NCBI GenBank assembly: GCA_030390025.1
Contig: CM059432.1
Location: 806,001 to 870,000 of the forward strand
DNA length: 64,000 nt
Source of the DNA: Squalus acanthias
Taxonomy: Eukaryota
Direction of reading: 5' to 3'
Shown here: in pieces, positions 5,257-59,525 of the stretch
Layout: each line of letters begins with the position of its first letter
How positions within the stretch are numbered: the stretch's first letter is position 1
The notes under the pieces: generated by a model
The model's database searches: none
What the model was told of the DNA's origin: nothing
The model's input: the letters and a program-made list of their open reading frames with translations, nothing else
Made by a program: the position numbers and the translations under genes

Positions 5257-6488
5257 GGGTGCGGTAGCATAGTGGTTATGTTACTGGGCTAGTAATCCAG
5301 AGACCAGGACTATGAGTCTATGGGCTGGATTTTGATACTGGGGACGTGATGGAGGTGGGACTCCCACTTTTTGGGTTGTAGTCCCGCCTCCATCGACTTG
5401 TGGCCAACCCACTGCATTTTCACTTGATTGACCTTGTTGAGCCCGCCCAGTGAGCTCAGCAGGCCAATTAAGGGCCACCCGGCAACAGGTGACATCACAG
5501 ATTGACATTTCATCTGTCAAGAGCTTTTGACAGATGAAATATCAGCGTTTGACAGCTCCTTGAAGCTGTCAAACACTGACAATCTGTCTTCTAACTTGAG
5601 TCCTTCCTCTCAGGCTGAGTTAGAAATCATTCCAGCACAGAAAACAGAGGCTGCAGTTTTTGACAGCACCACGGCCATTGTGCTTTCTGTGCCGGTGAGA
5701 TTTCTGAGTCCCGAGACCTGAAGGGCTGACACCTGCAGGAGGAAGTTAAGGTAAGTAAAACTTTTTCCCACACTTTACACTTACCTTACACACTTACCTC
5801 TGCACACATGCACTCATCATTCACCTGCCCACCTCCAACCCCTGCAGACCCACGGTCCGCCTCGCTAACTTGGCGTGGTTGGGACCTGTCGGGAAGCCCA
5901 CATTTCACGAATCAAAATAGGGATTAGGCAACAAACTGCCTGTTAACTACCTGTTAACAGGCAGTTAATTGCCACTAATCCCCTTCCCACCTCGGGGAGG
6001 CGGGTCCCAGCACAGGTCGGGTACCCGCCTCCAACGAAACTGGCATGGAGGCGGGTTGGGGGCGGGATGGGTTCGGGACCCCCGAATCTGCAACTTTAAC
6101 CCCCCACACGCCTTCAAACCCGACTCCACGGGTCAATGAAAATCCAGCCCCATGAGTTCAAATCCCACCATGGCAGCTGGGGAATTTAAATTCAGTTAAT
6201 TAAATAAATTTGGAATTAAAAAGCTAAGTATCAGTAATGGGAATCATGATGGTAATCATGAAACTACTGGATTGTTGTAAAAACCCATCTGGTTCACTAA
6301 TGTCCTTTAGGGAAGGAAATCTGCCAGTCTGGGCCTATATGTTGACTCTTAACTGCCCTCTGAAATGGCCCAGCAAACACTCAGTTATGAAGGTGGTTCA
6401 CTGCCATGTTCTTGAGGGCAATTAGGGATGCACAATAAATGCTGGCCTTTCCAGTGACGCCCACATCCTGTGAATGAATTAAAAAAAA
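5257..6488 (+). mobile_element. Second tRNA-derived SINE family, interrupted by a MITE at 5322-6150
   Basis: A-box TAGCATAGTGG lies before the MITE and B-box GAGTTCAAATCCC after it. The tail matches the LINE end at about 37550-37710. Another copy is at 20051-20493 (-). Confidence 0.75.
5322..6150. mobile_element. Non-autonomous Harbinger-type element (TIR GGGCTGGATTTT)
   Basis: TIRs GGGCTGGATTTT...AAAATCCAGCCC with 3-bp flanks TAT/CAT. Related copies at 47438-48283, 52460-52703 and 56281-56600. Confidence 0.85.
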
Positions 6489-6701
6489 TTCCAGAGGCTC
6501 ATTTACTCTCTGGGGAAAGGAAGAACTGCCCAACATCCAGTCTATTCCCACCCTTACATTGTTTAAACTCATGTCCTCTGGTCCTCCCTCCCCGATCTGT
6601 TAAACTGGAATAATCTATCGATAGGGACACTAACCAGCCTTTCATTATTTTATAGACATCTATCTGGTCACCTCTAAGTCTACGCTGCTCTAAAGTAAAT
6701 A

Positions 6702-6846
6702 TGCCGGTGTTGTCTTTGAGCCTATATATGCTTTGGCGATTCTGTATCTCTTTACTTCACCTGAGGAAGGGGCGATCGATAGCTCCGAAAGCTTGTGATT
6801 TCAAATAAAACTGTTGGACTATAACCTGGTGTTGTGCGACTTCTCA
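6702..6846 (+). mobile_element. Short Penelope-like pLTR-derived insertion
   Basis: Flanked by the direct repeat CTAAAGTAAATA (6690-6701, 6847-6858). Same family as 11801-12030. Confidence 0.7.
6757..6798 (+). ncRNA. Minimal type I hammerhead ribozyme motif
   Basis: TCAC-CTGAGGA-A-GGGGC-loop-GCTCC-GAA-AGCT-T-GTGA: conserved CUGANGA/GAAA core, stems I and II, palindromic helix III. Confidence 0.65.
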
Positions 6847-7324
6847 CTAAAGTAAATAGACCAAGGTCCTTGAGCCTATTCGAGTAGCTGAGGTTCTTTA
6901 AGCTCGGAATCATTCTTGCAGCACTCCTCTGGACCTTTTCCAAGACCACTATATCACCCACCATGTGTGGGGACCAAAACTGGGCCCAGTATTCTAGGTG
7001 CGGTCTGTACAGCGCTCTCCTGGGTAGAAGGATTGGAATCCGAGTCAAACAGGAGCCAGGTAGTGTCGGGAAGACAGTGTAATTTCCTTGTAAACCATAT
7101 GTGAAATGTCTTTAACCAAATCTGTTTTATGCCTTAAACTCCAGTGGTGGGGGGGTGGGGCGGGGAAGTACAAGTATTTACAGTGACAATCAAAACGGTT
7201 TAAGGGAGGGGTGGACTGGCTATATGGGAAATCAGGAAATTCCCCGTGTTCTACCATGAATGGTTCCAGAGGGCTGTATTCCAAAGGGCCTTCCCCTTTT
7301 CCCGTGAGAATCCGCCACCCTTTC

Positions 7325-10795: not shown

Positions 10796-11071
10796 ATATA
10801 TTTTTCAAAAACTCTAGTCAAGAAGTCCAGATTAGACATTGAGCCCTCCACTAAGTCATATTGGCAACTTTAGAAAATTGATTTTGTTTCTTTATTTCAC
10901 CTAATAATAAATAATCAGAATAGGCCATTTATTCTTATGATTTTTTTTGAATTACCGTGCTCTTATTCCATGAGGTTAAGATTAGTCTGGAATCAAGGTG
11001 CACATTTCAACCTGCCCAAACTTAACTGGTTGGATTGAGCCAAACCAACGAGCTCAGTTAATGAATCACGA

Positions 11072-12160
11072 ATACAAAGTCAAAATACTGAGGATGCTGG
11101 AAATCTGAAATATAAACAGAAAATGCTGGAAATACTCAGCAGGTCAGGCAGCATCTGTGGAGAGAGAAACAGAGTTAACGTTTCATGTCGGTGACCTTTC
11201 GACAGAACTGGAAAATGTTAGAGGTGTAACAGGTTTTAAGCAAGTGCGGGGGGCAGGGAAGGGTGGGGGTGTGGAGGAAAGATTAAAAGGGAAGGTCTGT
11301 GATAGGGTGCAAGGTAGGAGCAATTAAATGACAAAAGGGATGATGGCAATGGGACAAGTAAATAACCAAAATCGAAATGGGATACACAGTAAAGGGCCCT
11401 GCCCGCCCTTCTGCCTTCACCCCTTCCCCTCCCTCCTGGAACCACGATTGGTTTTCCCTTGTCCTCACCTTCCGCCCCACCAGCCTCCACATTCAACAGA
11501 TATTCGTCCGTCATTTCCGCCACCTCCAGCGTGATCCCACCACCAAACACACCTTCCCCTCCCCTTTCAGCATTCCGAAGAGACACCCTGGTCCACTCCT
11601 AAATCACCCCAAACACCCACTCCCCTCCCCACGGCACCTTCCCATGTAAGCGCAGGAAATGCAACATCTGCCCTTTCACCTCCTCCTTTACAATGTCCAG
11701 GGTCCCAAACACTCCTTCCAGGTGAAACAGTGATTTACTTGTACTTCTTTCAATTTAGTATACTGTATTTGCTGCTCACAATGTGGTCTCCTCTACGTTG
11801 CCATGATGTGGAGATGCCGGTGTTGGACTGGGGTGGACAAAAGTGAGAAGTCGCACAACACCAGGTTATAGTCCAACAGTTTTATTTGAAATCACAAGCT
11901 TTCGGAGAGGCTGCTCCTTCGTCAGATGAACCTTCACCTGACGAAGGAGCAGCCGCTCCGAAAGCTTGTGATTTCAAATAAAACTGTTTCGGACTATAAC
12001 CTGGTGTTGTGCGACTTCTCACTTTTGTCCTCTACGTTGGGAAGACCAAACGCAGATTGGGTGATCGCTTTGCAGAACACCTCCGTTCAGTCCGCAAGCG
12101 TGTTCCTGAGTTTCCGGTCGCCTGTCATTTTAATTCTCTGCTCCATTCCCACTCTGACCT
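11072..12160 (+). mobile_element. Penelope-like retroelement fragment: inverted pLTR (11072-11395) plus RT-thumb/GIY-YIG coding remnant
   Basis: LVLTFRPTSLHIQQIFVRHFRHLQRDPTTKH; VYCICCSQCGLLYV|GKTKRRLGDRFAEH (GIY-YIG) rejoins across the insertion at 11801-12030. Confidence 0.85.
11801..12030. mobile_element. Hairpin-shaped Penelope pLTR insertion with two opposed hammerhead motifs (11892-11929 -, 11934-11971 +)
   Basis: About 96-bp inverted arms (11835-11930 and 11933-12030), TSD (TC)CTCTACGTTG, and a CTGACGA...GAAAGCTT core in each arm. Confidence 0.75.
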
Positions 12161-12881
12161 GCACAGAGCAGGATTAAAAATGGAGTGGACTTAAACAGAG
12201 TGTTTTATTTGGGAATTTGGAAAGAGTGGGAATTTGGAGAAGAGGGGGAAGGAGTTGCTGCTTTTTGCCTACACTACTTGTAGTGCTTTGTGTACAGGTA
12301 GATATTTAATTTCAGTACCCATAACTTAATCTAGATCAAGTAAGTAGCCAAGAAACAACACTGTAAACTAAGTTACCTAATTACAAATTTAATTACATTT
12401 AAGTAAATAAAACAAGGTCATAAGATGTGCGGGTTAGGTTGGATTTGGCTATGATAAATTGACCCTTAGTGTTAGGGGGGGGATTAAATACGGGGATAGG
12501 GTGGGATATGTGTCGGTGCAGGCTCGATGGGCCGAAATGGCCGAAATGGCCTCTATCTGCACTGTGGGGATTCTGTGATTCTGATCCTAACTCACACCAA
12601 GACCCATTCACCCATCATCCGAACTTATATAGGGATTGCAGTGCAGGTGGTGTGCCGCAACTGCAGCAGTGGGAGTTTGTGGAGAGCATTGTGATCCCGG
12701 ACAACCACGTTTGCAGCAAGTGCCTGCATCTTGAGGAACTTCAGCTCAGAGTTTTTGAGCTGGAGTCCGAGATGCAGACATTGCGGGGCAGCAGGGATGG
12801 GGAGAGTTACCTGGACACTTTGATCCCGGAGGCAGTCACACCCCTTAGGTTAGGTAGTGGTACAGGTCTGGTTAGTGGTCA
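12160..12881 (+). mobile_element. CR1 5' region / ORF1 N-terminal zinc-finger-leucine-zipper remnant, with a SINE 3' fragment at about 12425-12585
   Basis: WEFVESIVIPDNHVCSKCLHLEELQLRVFELESE in ORF 12469-12894. Confidence 0.65.
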
Positions 12882-13343
12882 GGGGCAGTACTGAGGGAGC
12901 GCTGCACTGTCGGAGGGGTAGTACTGAGGGAGCGCTGCACTGTCGGAGGGGTAGTACTGAGGGAGCGCTGCACTGTCGGAGGGGTAGTACTGAGGGAGCG
13001 CTGCACTGTCGGAGGGGTAGTACTGAGGGAGCGCTGCACTGTCGGAGGGGTAGTACTGAGGGAGCGCTGCACTGTCGGTGGGGTAGTACTGAGGGAGCGC
13101 TGCACTGTCGGAGGGGCAGTACTGAGGGAGTGCTGCACTGTCGGAGGGGCAGTACTGAGGGAGTGCTGCACTGCCGGAGAATTAGTACTGAGGGAGTGCT
13201 GCACTGTCGGAGGGGCAGTACTGAGGGAGTGCTGCACTGTCAGCGGGCCAGTACTGAGGGAGTGCTGCACTGTCAGAGGGGCAATACTGAGGGAGTGCTG
13301 CACTGTCAGAGGGCCAGTACTGAGGGAGTGCTGCACTGTCGGA
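12882..13343 (+). repeat. 33-bp tandem array (~14 units) amplified from the Deu-SINE interior; SINE body continues to about 13660
   Basis: Unit GTACTGAGGGAGCGCTGCACTGTCGGAGGGGTA; 11-aa periodicity in the ORF track. Confidence 0.95.
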
Positions 13344-13993
13344 GTTGCCGTCTTTCGGATGAGACGTTAAACCGAGGCCCCGTCTGCTCTCTCAGGTGGA
13401 TGTAAAAGTTCCCACGGCCACTATTCTGAAGAAGAGCAGGGGAGTTCTCCCCGGTGTCCTGCCTAATATTTATCCCTCGACCAACATCACTAAAAAGCAG
13501 ATTATCACATTGCTGTTTGTGGGAGCTTGCTGTGCGCAAGTTGGCTGTTGTGTTTCCTACATTACAACAGTGACTGCACTTCAAAAAGTATTTGCTTGGC
13601 TGTGAAGTGCTTTGGGATGTCCTGAGGTCATGAATGGCGCTTTAGAAATGCAAGTTCTTTCAGGTTAGGATTAGTGGGTTTGAATGCTTTAGTGGTAATT
13701 TTTTACAATCTCTGAGAATAGGACACTGTGATCCCTCACATAAAGGCTGTTAAAAACAGTCCCTTTCACTAGAATCAATCGAACTTTCTGAAAAGTGCGT
13801 CCGGCACTTAAGCTGCAAACTGTGTCCAGACAATCAGATGAATGAAGTTAAAAGCGATAGCTCCGATTGTAACTGCAGCGCACGAAGGGGTCGAAGCGAG
13901 CGTCAAGCTCACACGGTGTGCTGGTCTCAGCCCCAGCCCGTTTCAACCCTCCCCAACCTCAACTGCGTCTGTGGGCCGTTTCCAGGCTTAGGC

Positions 13994-14332
13994 TTCAGGG
14001 TCTAGGCCAAGGGTTCAGGGTCGGGGCCAAGGGTTCAGGGTCGGGGCCAAGGGTTCAGGGTCTGGGCCAAGGGTTCAGGGTCTGGGCCAAGGGTTCAGGG
14101 TCTGGGCCAAGGGTTCAGGGTCTGGGCCAAGGGTTCAGGGTCTGGGCCAAGGGTTCAGGGTCTGGGCCAAGGGTTCAGGGTCTGGGCCAAGGGTTCAGGG
14201 TCTGGGCCAAGGGTTCAGGGTCTGGGCCTAGGGTTCAGGGTCTGGGCCAAGGGTTCAGGGTCTGGGCCAAGGGTTCAGGGTCTGGGCCAAGGGTTCAGGG
14301 TCTAGGCCTATTGTTCAGGGTCTAGGCTAAGG
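13994..14332 (+). repeat. 20-bp G-tract minisatellite (~17 units)
   Basis: Unit TCTGGGCCAAGGGTTCAGGG. Confidence 0.95.
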
Positions 14333-14344
14333 GTCCCACCAGGC

Positions 14345-15951
14345 CTGGTGAGAATCACATACCTAGCGGGAGGGAGGGAATCACACATCTGGCGGGCAGG
14401 AATCACACACCTGGTGGGAGGGAGGGAATCACACACCTGGCGGGAGGGTATGAATCATACACCTGGCGGGAGGGTGGGAATCACACACCTGGCGGGAGGG
14501 AATCACACACCTGGCGGGAGGGAGGGAATCACACACCTGGCGGGCGGGAGGGAATCACACACCTGGTGGGAGGGTATGAATCACACACCTGGCGGGCGGG
14601 AGGGAATCACACCTGGCGGGGGGAGGGAATCACACACCTGGCGGGAGGGAATCACACACCTGGCGGGGGGAGGGAATCACACACCTGGCGGGGGGAGGGA
14701 ATCACACACCTGGCGGGAGGGAATCACACACCTGGCGGGAGGGAATCACACACCTGGCGGGGGGAATTCACACACCTGGTGGGCGGGAGGGAATCACACA
14801 CCTGGCGGGAGGGAGGGAATCACACACCTGGCGGGGGAGGGAATCACACACCTGGCGGGGGGAGGGAATCACACACCTGGCGGGAGGGAATCACACACCT
14901 GGCGGGGGGAGGGAATCACACACCTGGCAGGGGGAGGGAATCACACACCTGGCAGGAGGGAATCACACACCTGGCGGGGAAGGGAATCACACACCTGGCG
15001 GGAGGGAATCACACACCTGGCGGGAGGGAATGGCGGGGGGAGGGAATCACACACCTGGCGGGAGGGAGGGAATCACACACCTGGCTGGGGGAGGGAATCA
15101 CACACCTGGCGGGGAAGGTATCACACACCTGGCGGAAGGGAATCACACACCTGGCGGGAGGGAATCACACACCTGGCGGGGGGAGGGAATCACACAGCTG
15201 GCGGGAGGGAGGGAATCACACACCTGGCGGGAGGGAATCACACACCTGGCGGGCGGGAGGGAATCACACACCTGGCTGGGGGAGGGAATCACACACCTGG
15301 CGGGGAAGGTATCACACACCTGGCGGAAGGGAATCACACACCTGGCGGGAGGGAATCACACACCTGGCGGGGGGAGGGAATCACACAGCTGGCAGGAGGG
15401 AGGGAATCACACACCTGGCGGGAGGGAATCACACACCTGGCGGGGGGGAGGGAATCACACACCTGGCGGGCGGGAGGGAATCACACACCTGGCGGGAGGG
15501 AATCACACACCTGGCGGGAGGGAGGGAATCACACACCTGGCGGGAGGGAATCACACACCTGGCGGGAGGGAGGGAATCACACACCTGGCGGGGGGAGGGA
15601 ATCACACACCTGGCGGGGGGAGGGAATCACACACCTGGCGGGAGGGAATCACACACCTGGCGGGGGGAGGGAATCACACACCTGGCGGGAGGGAATCACA
15701 CACCTGGCGGGCGGGAGGGAATCACACACCTGGCGGGGGGAGGAAATCACACACCTGGCGGGGGGAGGGAATCACACACCTGGTGGGAGGGAATCACACA
15801 CCTGGCGGGCGGGGGGGAATCACACACCTGGCGGGGGGAGGGAATCACACACCTGGCGGGAGGGAGGGAATCACACACCTGGCGGGAGGGAATCACACAC
15901 CTGGCGGGAGGGAATCACACACCTGGCGGGAGGGAATCACACACCTGGCGG
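14345..15951 (+). repeat. 22-26 bp VNTR (~65 units)
   Basis: Constant GGAATCACACACCTGGCGG plus a variable G/A spacer. Confidence 0.95.
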
Positions 15952-42461: not shown

Positions 42462-44947
42462 ATAAAACTCGCATTTCTACAGTGCCTTTCACCACCGGAC
42501 GTCCCAAAGCGCTTTACAGCCAATTAAGTACTTTTTGAAGTGTGGTCACTGTTGCAGCAGCCAATTTGTGCACAGCAAGCTCCCACAAACAGCAATGTGA
42601 TAATGATTATTTCCTCTGGTGGGGGGAGTACAATTAGAGCTAGGCCATTCAGGGGTGATGTCAGGAAGCACTTATACACACAAAGGGTGGTGGAAATCGG
42701 GAACTCTCTTCCCCGAAAATCTGTTGAGACTGGGGGTCAACTGAAAATTTCAAAACTGAGATTGAGAGATTTTTGTTAGGCAAGGGTATTAAGAGGATAC
42801 GGAACCAAGGAGTTGTTACAGATCAATCCTGATCTAATTGAATTGCGGAACAGGCTCAAGGGGCTGAATGGCCTACTCTTGATCTTATATTCCTAATCTG
42901 TTTTAGGTTGAGGGGTAAATATTGGCCAAGACACTGGGGAGAACTCCCCTGCTCTTCTTTGAAATAATGCCATGGGACCCTTTTCATCCACCTGAGAGGG
43001 CAGACGGGGCTTTGGTTTATCATTTTATCCAAACAACGGCACCTCCAATAGTGCAGTGCTTCCTCAGTAAACATAGAAACATAGAAGATAGGAGCAGGAA
43101 TAGGCCATTCGGCCCCTCGAGCCTGCTCCGCCATTCGATGAGATCGTGGCTGATCATCTAAACTCAGTACCCTGTACCTGCCTTCTCCCCATATCCCTTG
43201 ATACCTTTAGCTTTAAGAAATATATCTAACTCATCCTTGAATATATTTAATGACTTGGCCTCAACTACCTTCTGTGGTAGAGAATTCCACAGGTTCACCA
43301 CTCTCTGGGTGAAGAAATTCTTCCTCATTTCTGTCCTAAATGGTTTACCCGTTATCCGTAGATTATGACCCCTGGTTCTGGACTCTCCGACCATCGGGAA
43401 CATTCTTCCTGCATCTAGTTTGTCCAGACCTGTCAGAATTTTATATGTTTCGATGAGATCCCCTCTCATTCTTCTATACTCCAGTGAGTATAAGCCCAAT
43501 CGACCCAATCTCTCCTCATATGTCATTCCTGCCATCCCAGGTATCAGCTTTGTGAATCTTCGCTGAACTCCTTCCATGGCAAGAACATCCTTCCTCAGAT
43601 AAGGCGACCAAAACTGCACACAGTACTCAAGGTGTGGTCTCACCAAGGCCCTGTACAACTGCAGCAGGACATCCCTGTTCCTATACTCAAACCCTTTCGC
43701 TATGTAGGCCAACATACCATTTGCCTTCTTCACCGCCTGCTGCACCTGCATGCTTACTTTCAGCGACTGGTGCACAAGGACACCCAGGTCTCGTTGCACT
43801 TCCCCTTCTCCCAATCTATTGCCATTCAGATAATAGTCTGCCTTTCTGTTTTTGACACCAAAGTGGATAACCTCGCACTTATCCACGTTATATTGCATCT
43901 GCCACGCTTCTGCCCACTCACCCAACCTGTCCAGATCATCCTGGAGTTTCTCGCTATTCTCCTCACTGCACACACTCCCACCCAGCTTTGTGTCATCTGC
44001 AAACTTGGAGATATTACATTTAATTCCCTTATCTAGATCATTAATGTATATTGTGAATAGCTGGGGTCCAAGGACCGATCCCTGCGGTACCCCACTAGTC
44101 ACTGCTTGCCACTTGGAAAAAGACCCATTAATTCCTACTCTCTGCTTTCTGTCCGCCAACCAGTTCTCTATCCAAGTCAATACCTTGCCCCCAATCCCAT
44201 GTGCCTTAACTTTACCCGCTAATCTCTTATGCGGGACCTTATCGAAAGCCTTTTGAAAGTCCAAATACACCACATCTACTGGTTCTCCCTTATCTATTTT
44301 CCCAGTTACATCCTCAAAAAATTCCAGTAGATTAGTCAAGCACGATTTACCTTTTGTAAATCCATGTTGACTTTGTCCGATCCTTTCACTGTTTTTCAAA
44401 TGCTCAGCTATTACATCCTTTATAATGGACTCTAGCATTTTCCCCACTACCGATGTCAGGCTTACCGGTCTGTAATTCCCCGTTTTCTCTCTACCACCCT
44501 TTTTGAATAGTGGGGTAACATTAGCTACCCTCCAATCCATGGGTACAGTTCCATATTCCATCGAATGTTGGAAGATGATCAGCAATGCATCTACTATTTC
44601 TAGGGCCACTTCCTTAAGTACCCTAGGATGTAGATTATCAGGCCCTGGGGATTTATCGGCCTTCAATACCGTCAATTTCCCTAACACCATTTCCCTGCAA
44701 ATACTGATTTCTTTCAGTTCCTCCCTTTCATCAGACCGTATGTTCTCCAACATCTCTGGGAGGTTATTTGTGTCCTCCTTTGTGAAGACAGAACCAAAAT
44801 ATGCATTTAATTGGGCTGCCATTTCTTTGTTCCCCATTATAACTTCCCCCGCTGGCACTGGAATATCAAACCAGATTTTGCACTCAAGTCTCGGGAGTGC
44901 GACTCGAACCTACAACCTTCTGACTCAGAAGCAAGAGTGTTATCCAC
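42462..44947 (-). mobile_element. Deu-domain SINE split in three (42462-42610, 42896-43069, 44853-44947) by two CR1 insertions
   Basis: The pieces are collinear with the SINE consensus in reverse; junction CCTCAGTA|...|CTGGCACTGG. Confidence 0.8.
43070..44852 (-). mobile_element. Young 5'-truncated CR1 with uninterrupted RT ORF (43164-44858, 564 aa)
   Basis: [38 protein letters not shown]; (TTCTATGT)n tail; no endonuclease domain. Confidence 0.95.
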
Positions 44948-47437
44948 TTTTTTTTTAATATATATTATTTATTGAACATTAAAAACATTTACAACATCAT
45001 GATCATTCCATTGTATCATACAAATCCATTCCGCCGCTCTGCACAGCCATTCCTCTGCCACATATTAACATCAAAACCTGACATTTAATTTGTCTCCAGT
45101 AACATATATTAATCTATTGTACTTTAAAAATTGATCATAAAATACTATCTTTAAATTCCTTTCTGAATAAAACATCCACATAGCCTTATAATGATCTTTA
45201 AGCTTATATTTAAAATACTCTTTTAGATTGATTCTCCTCCCCTTAAAAACCAGAGCATTCCTTCTTTGCAGAATTACGAATCTAGCCAAACTGAACATTA
45301 AATTAATTGCTGCTCCGCTAGACTCGGCCAGACTCTCCTGCAATCCCCATCTCAATATTGAGTCCCACGGGATTCCCATTCTCACTCTTTGGTCCCCATC
45401 CAGCAAAAAAAACTCACACAACTGTTGAACATAGCACTTAAAATCCTTTAACTGTGGACATAACACCAGTAAATGGGACAGAGTCTCATCATGTGTCCCA
45501 CACACTGGGCAAGTTGCCTCCTCCACTCGTCCAATCTTACACAAGACCGTCATGGTAAAAATCCGGTTATGAGCCAATTTGAAATCCAGTTCAATCAACT
45601 CTGGACATTTAAAATTCTCCCACACTCCCTTCCAAATCCTGTTGAAGTCCAGCTGTGGGTATATACTCTGCCAAAACTCCTGACCAGCAGGTGTCTTGAA
45701 TCTCCATTCTCTAAATACCCCATAGAAATCTCGAGTATGACAGTTGTCAAGTTGGACCAACTCTTCCCCTTTCTCCAGCAGAAAGCTTGGAAAAGCAGGA
45801 TGCATTTTACTTCCTTTGGAGATTTGCGCATTTATTTCTTCCATCCAATCCTGTGGCATTGTCCTCACAATCTTCTCATACATGATCATAATTGCTTTTT
45901 CCTCTACCTCCTGATCCTCCTCCCACACCATATCCCTCACGACCGCTTCCGGCAACCAACCTGGAATTACCTCGTATAATACATCTTTCACACATATAAT
46001 ACCAGCTTCTATAAAAGCTTGATTAAATAATACCTCTCCTTCAATGTTGACCCACCTGTTCAAAAATAAGGGCTGTTCTAAAAATTCCTCAGCACCCTTG
46101 GGCATACACTGCACACTTTTTAAAAATTGGGCCCAAGTCTCTATAATCCCCTTATAAAACCTAGGGAGAAGTTTAATCGATTTCAAAAACATATTATTGT
46201 ATTCCATATACAATATTCCCTGCCCTCCTATCCCACTTTGTTTTAAAAAATGCTCGAAACAACTCTTCCAAAAACTTGTATTTGACTTCTGAAGAAATCT
46301 CTTCACCCATTTGATTCTAAAGGATTTTTTCTTCAAATCAGTATGTGGGAAATTGAGTCCTCCCTGATTTCTCTGTCCAATTATGGTATTTTAAGCAACC
46401 AAAGCTGGTTTCCCTTCCCATAAAAACCTCACACAAGCCTCTTGGATGGACTTTTCCGCCCACTCAGGAATATCCTCCACCGTCAATAAGTACCATAGCT
46501 TAGATAGCAGGAGAGCGGACACCACTGTCGCTCTCCCTTGCACTTTCAACCAACTTCTTTCCCATCTTCCCAAAATCTTTTTAATTTTCATAACCTTCGG
46601 TTCCCAATTTAATCAATCCACTTCATCCCTGTCCTTCTTGCACCCCATATGCACCCCCAGAACTTCCAAAACCTCCACCACCTTAAAGGGGCTTTCCTCC
46701 AACCATTCCCCCCTACCCCTTCCCGCAACCTGGCATTGGGACTTACTATAATTCACTCTGGCTCCTGAAGCTCTACACTACATCCATAGCTTTCCTCACT
46801 GACTCCCCATCTCTCAACGTTAAGGTTGTGTCATCTGCATATAGGTGTATCACCGACACCCGCCCGGAACTGGGAACCGCAATCTCGACTACGCCTTGTT
46901 CCTTTCGCATCATGTAATCTAATGGTTCTGCTACCAATGTGTACAACAATGGGGACAGGGGACAACCCTGTCTCACTGACCTCTGTATCAGAAAATACTT
47001 GGATAAAAAACCATTACATTTAAGACAGCTAAATATGTTTGAATAAAAAATCCTTATCCACTTAATGAAATTTTTCCCGAAACCAAATGCTTCCAAAACC
47101 ATCAATAAAAACTCATGAGAGACCCTATCAAAGGCTTTCTCTTGATCTATCTTTAACACATAAGCCTCCCTCCCACTCTCTTCCATGAGCTCTATTGCAT
47201 CTCGGATTGAGACCACAGAGTCTGCGATGTCCCGGCCTACGACTCCACAGGACTGAGAGGGCAAAACTATCTGCGGCAACACCTCCTTCATACGATTTGC
47301 CATAACCCTCGCCAAGATCTTATAATCCACATTTAATAATGTGATGGGCCTCCAATTCTTTAGATCCCTTCTATCCCTTTTATTTTTATGAGCTAAGCTT
47401 ATGATACCTCTCCTCATAGATGAGCAATGGACTTAAA

Positions 47438-52189: not shown

Positions 52190-52703
52190 TTTCTCACATG
52201 GCAGCTGTTGATGATTCTGCCTTTGCCATTTACACCTCATCTAGAGTCATCTTTTGTTTCTTAACTTGCCCCATTATCATCTCCTTTTGCCTTGCACCAT
52301 CATCCCTTTTGTTTTTTAATCTCTCCTGCCTTCCAGCCTATCACAGACCTTCCCTTTTGTTCTTTTATCCCCTCCTCCCTTTCCCTGCCCCACACTTGCT
52401 TAAAAATCTGTTACATCTCTAACTTTTCCAGCTCCGACAAAGGGTCACAGACCTGAAACGGCTGGATTTTGCCAATGGGGAGCTTTTGGAGGCGGGACTC
52501 CCACTTGTCGGGTTTCAGTCCCGCCTCCATCAACTTCTGGCCAACCCACGCTATTTTCCCTTGATTGACCTTGTTAAGCCCGCCCAGCGGGTTTAGCAGG
52601 CCAATTAAGGGGAAGCCGGTTACAGAGAACGTCAACGTATGACGTTTCATCTGTCAAAAATTTTTGACAGATGAATTATCATCGTTTGACAGCTCTGTGA
52701 AGC
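52190..52703 (+). mobile_element. Penelope 3' fragment (to about 52460) cut by a truncated GGCTGGATTTT MITE
   Basis: Reverse-complement similarity to 11180-11395; the MITE begins right after GACCTGAAAC. Confidence 0.7.
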
Positions 52704-53009: not shown

Positions 53010-54741
53010 CATAAGAACATAAGACGTAGGAGCAGGAGTAGGTCATTTGGCCCTTCGAGCCTGCTCCGCCATTCAATAAGATCATGGCTGATCCGATCTT
53101 GGCCTCAACCACTTCCCTGCCCGCTCCCCATAACCCTTGACTCCCTTATCGTTCAAAAATCTGTCTATCTCCATCTTAAATATATTCAATGACCCAGCCT
53201 CCACAGCTCTCTGGGGAAGAGAATTCCAAAGATTCATGACCCTCTGTGAGAAGAAATTCCTCCTCATTTCCGATTTAAAAGGGTGCCCCCTTATTCTGAA
53301 ATTATGCCCCCTCGTTCTAGATTCCCCCACGAGGGGAAACATCCTCTCTGCATCTACCCTGTCAAGCCCCTTCAGAATCTTATATGTTTCAATAAGATCC
53401 CCTCTCATTCTTCGAAACTCCAATGAGTATAGGCCCAACCTGCTCAACCTTTCTTCATAAGATAACCCCTTCATCTCCGGAATCAACCTTGTGAACCTTC
53501 TCTGAACTGCCTCCAATGCAAGTATATCCTTCCTTAAATAAGGAGACCAAAACTGTACGCAGTACTCCAGGTGTGGTCTCACCAACGCCCTGTACAGTTG
53601 TAACAGGACTTCTCTACTTTTATACTCCATTCCCTTTGCAATAAAGGCCAACACTCCATTTGCATTCCTAATTGCTTGCTGTACCTGCATGCTAACTTTT
53701 TGTGATTCATGTACAAGGACCCCCAGAGCCCTCTGTACCTCAGCATTTTGTAATCTCTCCCCATTTAAATAATAATTTGCTTTTTCATTTTTCCTACCAA
53801 TGTGGATAACCTCGCATTTTCCCACATTAAACTCCATCTGCCAGATTTTTGTCCACTCACCTAGCCTATCTATATCCCTTTGGAGATTCTTTGCATTCTC
53901 CACACAATTTGCTTTCCCACCTATCTTTGTATCATCAGCAAATTTGGCTACATTACACTCAGTCTCTTCATCCAAGTCATTAATATAGATTGTAAATAGT
54001 TGAGGCCCCAGCACTGATCCCTGCGGTACCCCACTAGTTACAGTTTGCCAACCTGAAAATGACCCATTTATCCCGACTCTCTGTTTTCTGTTAGTTAGCC
54101 AATCCTCTATCCATACTAATATATTACCCCCAACCCCGTGAGCTCTTATCTTGTGTAGTAACCTTTTATGTGGCACGTTATCGAATGCCTTCTGGAAATC
54201 CAAATACACGACATCTACTGGTTCCCCTTTATCCACCCTGCTCGTTACATCCTCAAAGAACTCCAGCAAATTTGTCAAACATGATTTTCCTTTCATAAAA
54301 CCATGCTGACTCTGCTTGACTATATTATGATTTTCTAAATGTTCTGCTATCACTTCCTTAATGATGGACTCCAGCATTTTCCCAATGACAGATGTTAGGC
54401 TAACTGGTCGATAGTTGCCTGCTTTCTGTCTGCCTCCTTTCTTAAATAGGGGCGTTACATTTGCGGTTTTCCAGTCCGCTGGGACCGCTCCAGGATCCAG
54501 GGAATTTTGGTAGATTACAACCAATGCATCCACTATCTCTGCAGCCACCTCTTTTAAGACTCTAGGATGCCCGCCATCAGTTCCAGGGGACTTGTCCACC
54601 TTAGTTTTCCTAGTACTTTCTCTCTAGTGATAGTGATTGTTTTAAGTTCCCCCCCCCCACCCTAATAGCCCCTTGATTATCCATTATTGGGATGCTTTTA
54701 GTATCTTCTACCGTGAAGACCGATACAAAATATTTGTTCAA
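53010..54741 (-). mobile_element. Young 5'-truncated CR1 with long RT ORF (53082-54599)
   Basis: 505-aa ORF with all RT motifs; (TTCTTATG)n tail. Confidence 0.95.
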
Positions 54742-56280: not shown

Positions 56281-58125
56281 GGGCTGGATTTTTTCAATGG
56301 AGACGTGCTGGAGGCGGGACTTCTGATTTCCGGATTTCAGTCCTGCCCCCCAGCGACGTCTGATCAACCCACGCTATTTTCCCTTGATTGGCCTTGTTAA
56401 GCCCGCTCTGCAGGCTTACCGGCCAATTAAGGGAAAGCCGGTGACAGATGACGTCAGCGTTTGACAGCTTTGAGAAACGAGAGGCAATTAGCAGCAGCTC
56501 AGTGGAAAACAGAGAAGCCACTGTGATTAAGCCTCTCAGCGTTAGCTTGGCTATGTTATGGGATGAGGTTCCCCACATTTGCAGCACATGTATGCGTGAA
56601 AGGATCATAGAATCATGGAAAGTTACAGCACAGAAGGAGGCCATTTCGGCCCATCATGTCCGTGCCGGCCAACAAAGAGCTATTCAGCCTAATCCCACTT
56701 CCCAGCTCTTGGTCCATAGCCCTGCAGGTTAGAGCATCCCAAGTGCACATCCAAGTACTTTTTAAATGTGGTTAGGGTTCCTGCCTCTACCACCCTTTCA
56801 GGCAGTGAGTTCCAGACCCCCACAACCCTCTGGGCGAAGAAATTTCCCCTCAAATCCCCTCTAAACCTTCCACCAATTACTTTAAATCTGTGCCCCCTGG
56901 TTTTTGACCCCTCTGCTAAGGGAAATAGGTCCTTTCTATCCACTTTATCTATGTCCCTCATAATTTTATACACCTCAATAAGGTCTCTCCTCAGCCTCCT
57001 CTGTTCCAAGGAAAACAGACCCAGCCTATCCAGTCTTTCCTCATAGCTAATATTCTCTACTCCCAGCAACATCCTTGTAAATCTCCTCTGTACCCTCTCT
57101 AGTGCAATCACATCTTTCCTGTAATGTGGTGACCAGAACTGCACGCAGTACTCTAGCTGAGGCCTAACTAGTGTTTTATACAGTTGAAGCATAACCTCCC
57201 CTGCTCTTGTATTCTATGCCACGGCTAATAAAGGTAAGCATTCCGTATGCCTTCTTAACCACCTTATCTACTTAGCCTGCTACCTTCAGGGATCTGTGGA
57301 CATGCACTCCAAGGTCCCTTTGTTCCTCTACACTACTCAGTGTCCTACCATTTAATGTGTATTCCCTCCCCAAATGCATTACCTCACACTTCTCCGGATT
57401 GAATTCCATTTGCCTACTGTTCTGCCCACCTGACCAATTTATTGATATCTTCCTGCAGTCTACAGCTTCCTTCTTCAGTATCAACCACACAGGATATTGA
57501 AAGTAGATTGTCATTTTTACAATGTATATGCTTTAAAGGAAGATCAATGCATTTAAGGGAAAGCTAGATGAGTACAAGAGGGAGAAAGGAATAGAAGGAT
57601 ATGCTGATAGGGTGAGATGAAGAAGGGTGGGAGGAGGCTCGTGTGGAGCATAAACACCGGCACAGACCAGTTGGGCCAAATGGCCTGTTTCTGTGCTGTA
57701 AATATTATGTAATTCTATGTATAACTCTATGTACAATTCTCATCCTTGTTTTCAAATCCCTCCGTGGCCTGGCCCCTCCCTATCTCTGTAATCTCCTCCA
57801 GCCCCACAACCCCCCGAGATCTCTGCGCTCCTCTAATTCTGGCCCCTTGAGCATCCCCGATTTCATCGCTCCACCATTGGCGGCCGTGCCTTCAGCTGCC
57901 TGGGCCATAAGCTCCGGAATTCCCTCCCTAAACCTCTCCGCCTCTCTCTCCTCCTTTAAGACGCTCCTTAAAACCTACCTCTTTGACCAAGCTTTTGGTC
58001 ATCTGACCTAATATCCCCTTATGTGGCTCGGTGTCAAATCTTGTTTGATAATCGCTCCTGTCAAGCGCCTCGGGACACTTTACAACGTTAAAGACGCTAT
58101 AGAAATACAAGTTGTTATTGTTGTA
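56281..58125. mobile_element. Truncated MITE (56281-56600), CR1 (56605-57490 -), CR1 tail (57545-57735 +) and L2 end (57735-58125 +)
   Basis: Family motifs as above. Confidence 0.85.
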
Positions 58126-58879: not shown

Positions 58880-59525
58880 TACAACAACAACTTACATTTA
58901 AATAGCACCTTTAACATAGTAAAACATCCTGCGCTTCACAGGAGGGTTATCAAACACAATTTGACCCCCGAACCACATAAGGAGTTATTAGTACAAAAGC
59001 AAAATACTGTGGATGCTGGAAATCTGAAATAAAAACTAAAAATGCTGGAAATACTCAGCAGGTCAGGCAGCATCTGTGGAGAGAGAAACAGAGTTAACGT
59101 TTCAGGTCGATGACCCTTCGTCAGCACTCACAAAAGGTCATCGACCTGAAACGTTAGCTCTGTTTCTCTCTCCACAGATGCTGCCTGCCCTGCTGAGCAT
59201 TTCCAGCATTTTCTGTTTTTATTAAGGAGATATTAGGACAGGCGACCAAAAGCTTGGTCAAAGAGGTAGGTTTTAAGGAGCGTCTTAAAGGAGGAGGGTA
59301 GAGAGGCGGAGAGGTTTCGGGAGGGAATTCCAGAGCTTAGAGCCCAGGCAGCTGAAGGCACGGCCGCCAATGGTGGAGCGATGGAAATCAGGGCTGAGCA
59401 AGAGGCCAGGATTGGAGGAGGGCAGAGATCTCGGAGGGCTGTAGGGCTGGAGGAGGTAGGGAGGGGGGCGAGGCCATGGAGGGATTTGTAAACAAGGATG
59501 AGTTATTTAAAATAGATGCGTTGCC
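58880..59525 (-). mobile_element. L2 3' end interrupted by a Penelope hairpin
   Basis: The L2 tail resumes after the TSD at 59223. Confidence 0.85.
58992..59222. mobile_element. Hairpin-shaped Penelope pLTR insertion with a hammerhead motif (59091-59129, -)
   Basis: About 90-bp inverted arms; 14-bp TSD TAAGGAG(T/A)TATTAG; minus strand reads CTGACGA-A-GGGTC-ATC-GACCT-GAA-ACGT-T-AACTC. Confidence 0.75.

Follow-up and report, generated by a model that had tools for sequence, protein, structure and literature searches.

A fold-back Penelope-like insertion with two opposed hammerhead motifs in Squalus acanthias is very probably a dead-end by-product

Introduction

Insertions of Penelope-like elements (PLEs) typically contain an inverted pLTR (PMC3846280, PMC8557442), as an earlier note on the present DNA had pointed out, together with a one-sided 31-bp tail, a target-site duplication (TSD) of 9–10 bp, and palindromic junctions (PMC3846280). 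PLE tails have been located at the ORF start (PMC2377424, PMC3846280, PMC11167929). In Drosophila virilis Penelope, a TATA-less promoter lies 46 nt above an intron (PMC2377424), and the end of this intron maps to helix I (PMC4209133). A TATA box plus initiator is described in the Adineta pLTR (PMC3846280). A CX2-5CxxC linker ahead of GIY-YIG, combined with a CCHH motif, is the Neptune/Nematis pattern (PMC8557442). The PAc protein (Poseidon, Anolis carolinensis) cleaves and extends both strands, uses uncleaved RNA, and is predicted to be a dimer; its reverse transcription begins at two neighbouring internal positions that delimit the tail, and the steps after priming were left unvalidated (PMC11167929). 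The formation of tandem and inverted PLE structures is stated to be unresolved (PMC8557442).

In minimal PLE hammerheads, a palindrome replaces helix III, helix II is preceded by an extra base, and the closing pair is G-C; their monomers were reported to be inactive and their dimers weak (PMC4209133). Opposite-strand pairs of such hammerheads, spaced by 100–700 bp, were described in 2014, and truncated PLEs were given as their source (PMC4209133). Non-autonomous PLE derivatives are known, namely retrozymes (bioRxiv 10.64898/2026.07.22.740005) and MRC1 (PMC8557442), and siRNAs matching Penelope inverted repeats were described in transgenic D. melanogaster (PMC3681739).

Here, we analyzed a fold-back insert (A1) that carries two opposed hammerhead cores and lies within another PLE. 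The window, that is, the whole stretch of DNA analyzed, comprises 64,000 nucleotides of Squalus acanthias (assembly GCA_030390025.1, contig CM059432.1, positions 806,001 to 870,000).

Results

Structure of the fold-back insert

As shown in Table 1, A1 consists of two arms that meet at a 2-nt spacer, and a tail that is present on the left arm only. Apart from 2 substitutions and a 2-nt insertion on the right side, the arms are reverse complements of each other, in agreement with the earlier reading of arms of about 96 bp, a 2-nt gap, and about 3 differences. At least one base of the spacer is untemplated (11931); the other (11932) may be templated, as copy A2 has a C there. The earlier note had delimited the element as 11801–12030; a fold-back is indeed present in this interval, but the one-sided 34-nt tail within it had been overlooked. 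With the tail included, the arms measure 130 nt and 98 nt. The tail ends with the sole ATG of the sense arm, where the ORF would be predicted to start. When folded as RNA, the hairpin reached −180.3 kcal/mol (z = −26.7), a stability that none of 200 shuffled sequences matched.

The TSD of A1 amounts to 9–12 bp because its first 3 nt are common to the end of the right arm. The host frame breaks off at ...CSQCGLLYV before the insert and resumes with LYVGKTKRR... after it, so the 10–12 bp duplication that was said to split the host at LYV|GKT agrees with the 12 bp and the host residues observed here.

Table 1. Coordinates of the features of the insert, its host, and related insertions in the window
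Feature	Position	Strand	Description
Left TSD copy of A1	11789–11800	+	TCCTCTACGTTG; 12 bp, host codons around L-Y-V
Tail of A1	11801–11834	−	34 nt, left arm only; ends in ATGG
Left arm of A1, pLTR 3′ part	11835–11930	−	96 nt; element sense on this strand
Spacer at turn of A1	11931–11932		CC, 2 nt
Right arm of A1, tail-less	11933–12030	+	98 nt; last 3 nt common to TSD
Right TSD copy of A1	12028–12039	+	TCCTCTACGTTG
Putative minimal type I hammerhead	11889–11930	−	core from 11925; helix I with one G-U pair, helix II 4 bp
Putative minimal type I hammerhead	11933–11974	+	core from 11938; helix I 4 bp, helix II 5 bp
Host family-B pLTR region	11073–11395	−	tail, decayed hammerhead, upstream pLTR
Host ORF fragment	11396–12161	+	CX4CxxC linker, GIY-YIG endonuclease with CxxC and two His
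A2, family A	6701–6848	+	12-nt inverted tail piece and 136-nt sense arm
TSD of A2	6690–6701 and 6847–6858		12 bp
B2, family-B hairpin	58992–59223		36-nt tail, arms 97/97 nt (92% alike), 2-nt spacer
B3, family-B pLTR fragment	~52295–52461		ends just past hammerhead GAAA; TATA-like and initiator-like motifs kept

Host element and target site

The host belongs to a Penelope family (family B) other than that of the insert (family A). Its pLTR region forms the inverted arm of an asymmetric insertion. The hammerhead of this region, with its core at 11205, is decayed, and the initiator match is perfect (+1 = 11209), with a weak TATA; no TSD was found for this family-B insertion. The host ORF contains a stop and a frameshift, and its 3′ end is missing. 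It is predicted to be of the Neptune/Nematis type, as the CX4CxxC, the CxxC within the GIY-YIG motif, and the two His were found in its fragments, while the Pfam GIY-YIG match was weak (E = 0.092, below the cut-off).

Because the host was already broken, 3′-incomplete, and itself an inverted insertion with a decayed hammerhead, the landing of A1 inside the GIY-YIG motif of another Penelope is incidental and functionally meaningless. Target specificity for this motif was considered and rejected, since A2 landed in unrelated sequence and A1 in a host that was no longer intact. No family-A ORF was found in the window, nor was a host gene found among the 30 of 77 long frames scanned, a scan that short exons would escape. 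Other frames in the window correspond to a DDE_Tnp_4 (Harbinger-type) transposase and LINE reverse transcriptase (1023–2000; 43167–47432; 53085–54623). To the right of A1 lie minisatellites at 12880–13350 (33-bp units), 13925–14394 (20-bp), and from 14321 onwards (22–26-bp). Two palindromes with ~30-bp arms (5918–5984 and 52631–52690) are unrelated to the Penelope families.

Related insertions in the window

An nhmmer search of the window detected two family-A loci and three family-B loci, and only two family-A copies, A1 and A2, were seen whole. The sense arm of A2 reaches 43 nt above helix I, and this copy keeps a TATA (6723–6729) and an initiator; its 12-nt inverted piece is the sole other tail match in the window. 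Downstream of helix II, A2 and the left arm of A1 are identical at 66 of 66 positions, whereas helix II differs. In the A2 variant of helix II, pairing is kept through a G-U pair, and the loop is longer and partly palindromic. The arms of A2 measure 12 and 136 nt, compared with 130 and 98 nt in A1; these different arm ends suggest that the turn of family A is not fixed.

The family-B hairpin B2 has arms that both begin at the first C of the core, and its 14-bp TSD contains 1 mismatch. All three TSD-flanked Penelope insertions (A1, A2, and B2) have the tail at one end and a tail-less, oppositely oriented other end, with TSDs of 12–14 bp and an overlap of 1–3 nt at the tail-less end. Symmetric and asymmetric forms each account for two of the four inverted insertions in the window. 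The target of B2 is the second of two copies (57861–58021 and 59223–59386) of an interspersed repeat; these copies are inverted, 93–95% alike, and 1.2–1.3 kb apart. B2 also yields a spurious weak mir-14 match in Rfam.

Hammerhead cores and their folding

One CUGACGA...GAAA core was found on each strand of A1, as had been proposed from the sequence before (Table 1). Cleavage of the plus-strand hammerhead is predicted after CUU, and in the minus-strand hammerhead a palindromic AAGCUU replaces helix III. An Rfam scan of the window gave four weak matches, none of them to a hammerhead model; the ribozyme is therefore called from the motif and from the four features listed in PMC4209133. The motif and all four features are present in the A1 pLTR, which accordingly contains a predicted ribozyme.

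Folding of isolated 45-nt cores gave helix I and II probabilities of 0.86–1.0 for the plus arm and 0.60–0.77 for the minus arm. In a whole single arm, the hammerhead stem probability was only 0.003–0.04, indicating that the hammerhead fold is not favoured there, and in the full hairpin it was 0.0, with ~57 kcal/mol needed to force the hammerhead helices. The suggestion that a double-stranded RNA stem would mask the ribozyme is thus borne out in silico. The further suggestion that such a stem could be a Dicer substrate has a precedent in Drosophila Penelope inversions (PMC3681739). Because the core lies 3′ of its own complement on either strand, transcription would leave it no window for folding. 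A1 also contains no same-strand partner core for dimer formation.

Position of the turn relative to the predicted transcription start

In A2, a perfect TATA is located at −31 of a perfect initiator (+1 = 6754). Such a combination occurs at 10 sites in 128,000 strand-bases, which corresponds to ~0.0005 for a 6-nt window. The two arms of A1 end 2 nt and 1–2 nt short of the +1 seen in A2, where the start site of A1 is motif-predicted, post hoc, and borrowed from A2, a sister subfamily with a different helix II. Both arms of B2 end 4 nt short of a weaker match, consisting of a perfect initiator and a TATA with 2 mismatches; this class comprises 327 sites (~0.015). In both symmetric hairpins of the window, the two arms stop at the same base or 1 nt apart, no more than 4 nt from the predicted +1. 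The start region of family B also looks like a branch point followed by a 3′ splice site (CTAAC...CAG), and the turn boundary could therefore be a splice junction. A further point against a start at the turn is that the TATA-less promoter of D. virilis Penelope lies well upstream of its hammerhead.

These positions hint that the turn lies at the predicted transcription start of the element, a new lead that rests on two hairpins and on motif prediction. In the open-licence literature, we found no paper that ties the turn of a Penelope hairpin to the transcription start, or that deals with twin-primed hairpins.

Public sequencing contigs

Contigs of 4 of 21 public runs (5,920–95,442 contigs per run) were aligned to 11070–11932, which covers only the host and the left arm. 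They contained 386 distinct joints. Among the 15 best-supported of these 386, five join opposite strands; all five belong to family B and are asymmetric. Their short arms measure 76–84 nt. Relative to the predicted +1, the long arms end 1, 8, 19, and 20 nt below it in four cases and 2 nt above it in the fifth. The long arm thus comes within 2 nt of +1 in two of these five (11208 and 11211). Two family-A joints, 11874/11807 and 11930/11802, were present as well, of unspecified kind. No joint at the A1 turn (11930–11932) was found among the best 15 of 386, which do not include the locus's own junction either; this comparison had no positive control. A loose end represented by 22 contigs in organism B runs past the family-A core with non-mirror sequence.

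A strand-change joint at 11156/11189–11190 recurred in three runs from two organisms, with 3–14 contigs per run, and was seen in 1 contig of a fourth; a hot spot, an amplified subfamily, or misalignment of a related family may explain it. In three runs, 262–341 contigs per run depart from family B at 11165 with a similar continuation, which suggests a third family sharing the tail region. Contig depth was lower above the family-B hammerhead and at the family-A arm end, but depth cannot rank parts and was unused. Counts of A>G and T>C in a run guessed to be RNA (20 and 24) were not above those in DNA runs (21 and 30; 32 and 33); contigs are uninformative on editing, strand, small RNA, and circles. 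Pattern scans for families A and B found neither in viral contigs nor in metagenome contigs; a match of 20–21 nt in a Flavobacterium contig was rejected as chance.

Discussion

Comparison with described systems

The arrangement of A1 is already described for PLEs, and the coincidence with the start site is the sole new hint. Like Adineta Pen2a, A1 shows a head-to-head inverted pLTR, a one-sided tail of 30–40 nt, and a TSD of ~8–12 bp (PMC3846280, PMC8557442). Insertion into other elements is likewise shared, as is a pLTR in which TATA plus initiator were noted (PMC3846280). In contrast to Pen2a, A1 has no ORF or direct pLTR, and its arms, separated by 2 nt, end at the same base near the predicted +1. 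As in PAc, the predicted hammerhead of A1 lies just upstream of the two sites bounding the tail at which reverse transcription would start, and the use of uncleaved RNA and the extension of both strands by PAc match what is proposed below for A1 (PMC11167929). The PAc ORF starts in helix II and reverse transcription begins 111–118 nt into the ORF, whereas the sole ATG of A1 is at the tail end; symmetric hairpins and run-off at the RNA 5′ end are not described in the accessible part of that report (PMC11167929).

The type I core, the extra base before helix II, the G-C closure, and the palindrome are likewise those of metazoan pLTR hammerheads, but the A1 cores are only ~12 nt apart within one hairpin, unlike the widely spaced pairs of the 2014 report (PMC4209133). 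A1 is similar to animal non-LTR retrozymes in being short, non-coding, hammerhead-bearing, and derived from a PLE pLTR (PMC7229834; bioRxiv 10.64898/2026.07.22.740005). Those retrozymes, as far as these sources describe them, consist of head-to-tail tandems with same-strand ribozymes and circular RNA, whereas A1 is one inverted pair of masked cores that are minimal, not canonical. In twin-primed 5′ inversions of L1, both target strands prime, and a single TSD encloses the inverted part, a scheme that A2 and the host fit directly; the arms of L1 inversions are not known to overlap, whereas those of A1 cover the same sequence.

Proposed origin of the insert

We consider that A1 is very probably a dead-end by-product of some kind. 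With moderate confidence, we further propose that it is a dead-end minimal insertion of an autonomous family-A PLE that arose in a single event, with both target strands acting as primers. Of the two alternatives raised in the earlier note, the first was a minimal abortive Penelope insertion, and the inverted pLTR, the one-sided tail, and the TSD support it.

According to this proposal, the endonuclease would cut the two strands ~9–12 nt apart, a spacing taken from the observed TSD. One 3′ end, that of the top strand, would prime reverse transcription at the tail end, and the 3′ end of the bottom strand would prime 34 nt upstream through a 3-nt primer-template match, the shared TCC. Priming at two sites is suggested by the biochemistry of PAc, while the one-sided tail and the shared TCC are observed. 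The template RNA would be uncleaved at the hammerhead, because both arms of A1 keep the whole core. If transcription begins just above the hammerhead and these are the first start sites on the RNA, the cDNAs would run off its 5′ end after ~100–130 nt, a run-off to which the TATA and initiator of A2 point. The cDNA ends would then be joined head to head, with 1–2 untemplated bases, by a template jump or end-joining. Since one RNA cannot template two overlapping cDNAs at once, we assume two RNAs or sequential use. In the asymmetric types (A2 and the host), one cDNA may have stopped early, or the template may have come from a read-through transcript. The product has neither promoter nor ORF; read-through would give a 96-bp hairpin in which the ribozyme is unable to fold.

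On geometry alone, it is possible, although we put it slightly below an even chance, that Penelope replication inherently generates such hairpins as a by-product of fixed size. Reverse transcription primed at the first tail site would copy only the stretch from the transcription start to the ORF start, and two such cDNAs would be joined head to head. That these hairpins would, in addition, act through siRNA or editing as a brake on the parent element when read through is unlikely in our judgment.

Alternative origins

In an ordinary double 5′ truncation, both strands would prime in the same way, but chance, RNA structure, or a splice boundary would explain why copying stopped at the 5′ edge of the hammerhead. 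Breakpoints do vary, as seen in A2, in the asymmetric host, and in the 386 distinct contig joints, and the intron of D. virilis Penelope ends at helix I (PMC4209133), where family B has CTAAC...CAG. However, both symmetric hairpins stop both arms at most 1 nt apart and within 4 nt of the predicted +1, and a structural stall would be expected 3′ of the ribozyme, not after full copying. We regard this explanation as rather unlikely.

Self-priming, in which one cDNA or antisense RNA folds at the pLTR palindrome and is copied back, has been proposed for the frequent palindromes at inverted Adineta Penelope junctions (PMC3846280), and symmetric arms would result from it directly, with no second primer needed. 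Nevertheless, the A1 junction contains neither a templated loop nor a native palindrome, only the spacer with at least one untemplated base, and the arms of A2 do not overlap, which is impossible by fold-back copying. This route is improbable for A1.

The second alternative of the earlier note, a self-propagating, non-autonomous, retrozyme-like hairpin family mobilised as a unit by the Penelope enzyme, fared worse, and we consider it very improbable. Non-autonomous PLE derivatives do exist, as introduced above, and the hairpin shape recurs in the genome in B2; B2, however, comes from an unrelated family, indicating that this shape arises independently. A1 has only one minimal hammerhead per strand, both cores are masked in the hairpin, and there is no tandem same-strand pair of ribozymes, so that neither a dimer in cis nor a unit-length RNA would be formed. 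Moreover, the upstream promoter motifs are missing from the insert, A2 has other ends, and no joint at the A1 turn was seen among the best 15 of 386, weak evidence given the lack of a positive control. Whether the turn is fixed had been put forward as the check for a replicating family. The turn does differ between A1 and A2, but a fixed turn is a confounded sign of replication, since independent insertions from an RNA with a defined 5′ end would share their turn as well; a recurrent turn is therefore not proof of a replicating family.

Although near-perfect palindromes are a known artefact of long reads and amplification, A1 is almost certainly not an assembly or library fold-back chimera, because both TSD copies are present, the arms differ at three places, the tail is one-sided, and the host codons resume past the insert.

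Significance

As a single locus, A1 is an inert repeat, and annotators should not label such hairpins as MITEs, microRNA genes, or retrozymes. If the by-product reading of these hairpins is true, two unrelated families of this genome would disperse large numbers of near-perfect 100-bp hairpins, which pinpoint the start site to the base and cover exactly the ribozyme and the reverse transcription start sites. If the turn is the transcription start, minimal hairpins would be natural snapshots of second-strand formation, countable in any good assembly of this genome, and they would account for the excess of short hammerhead-bearing fragments.
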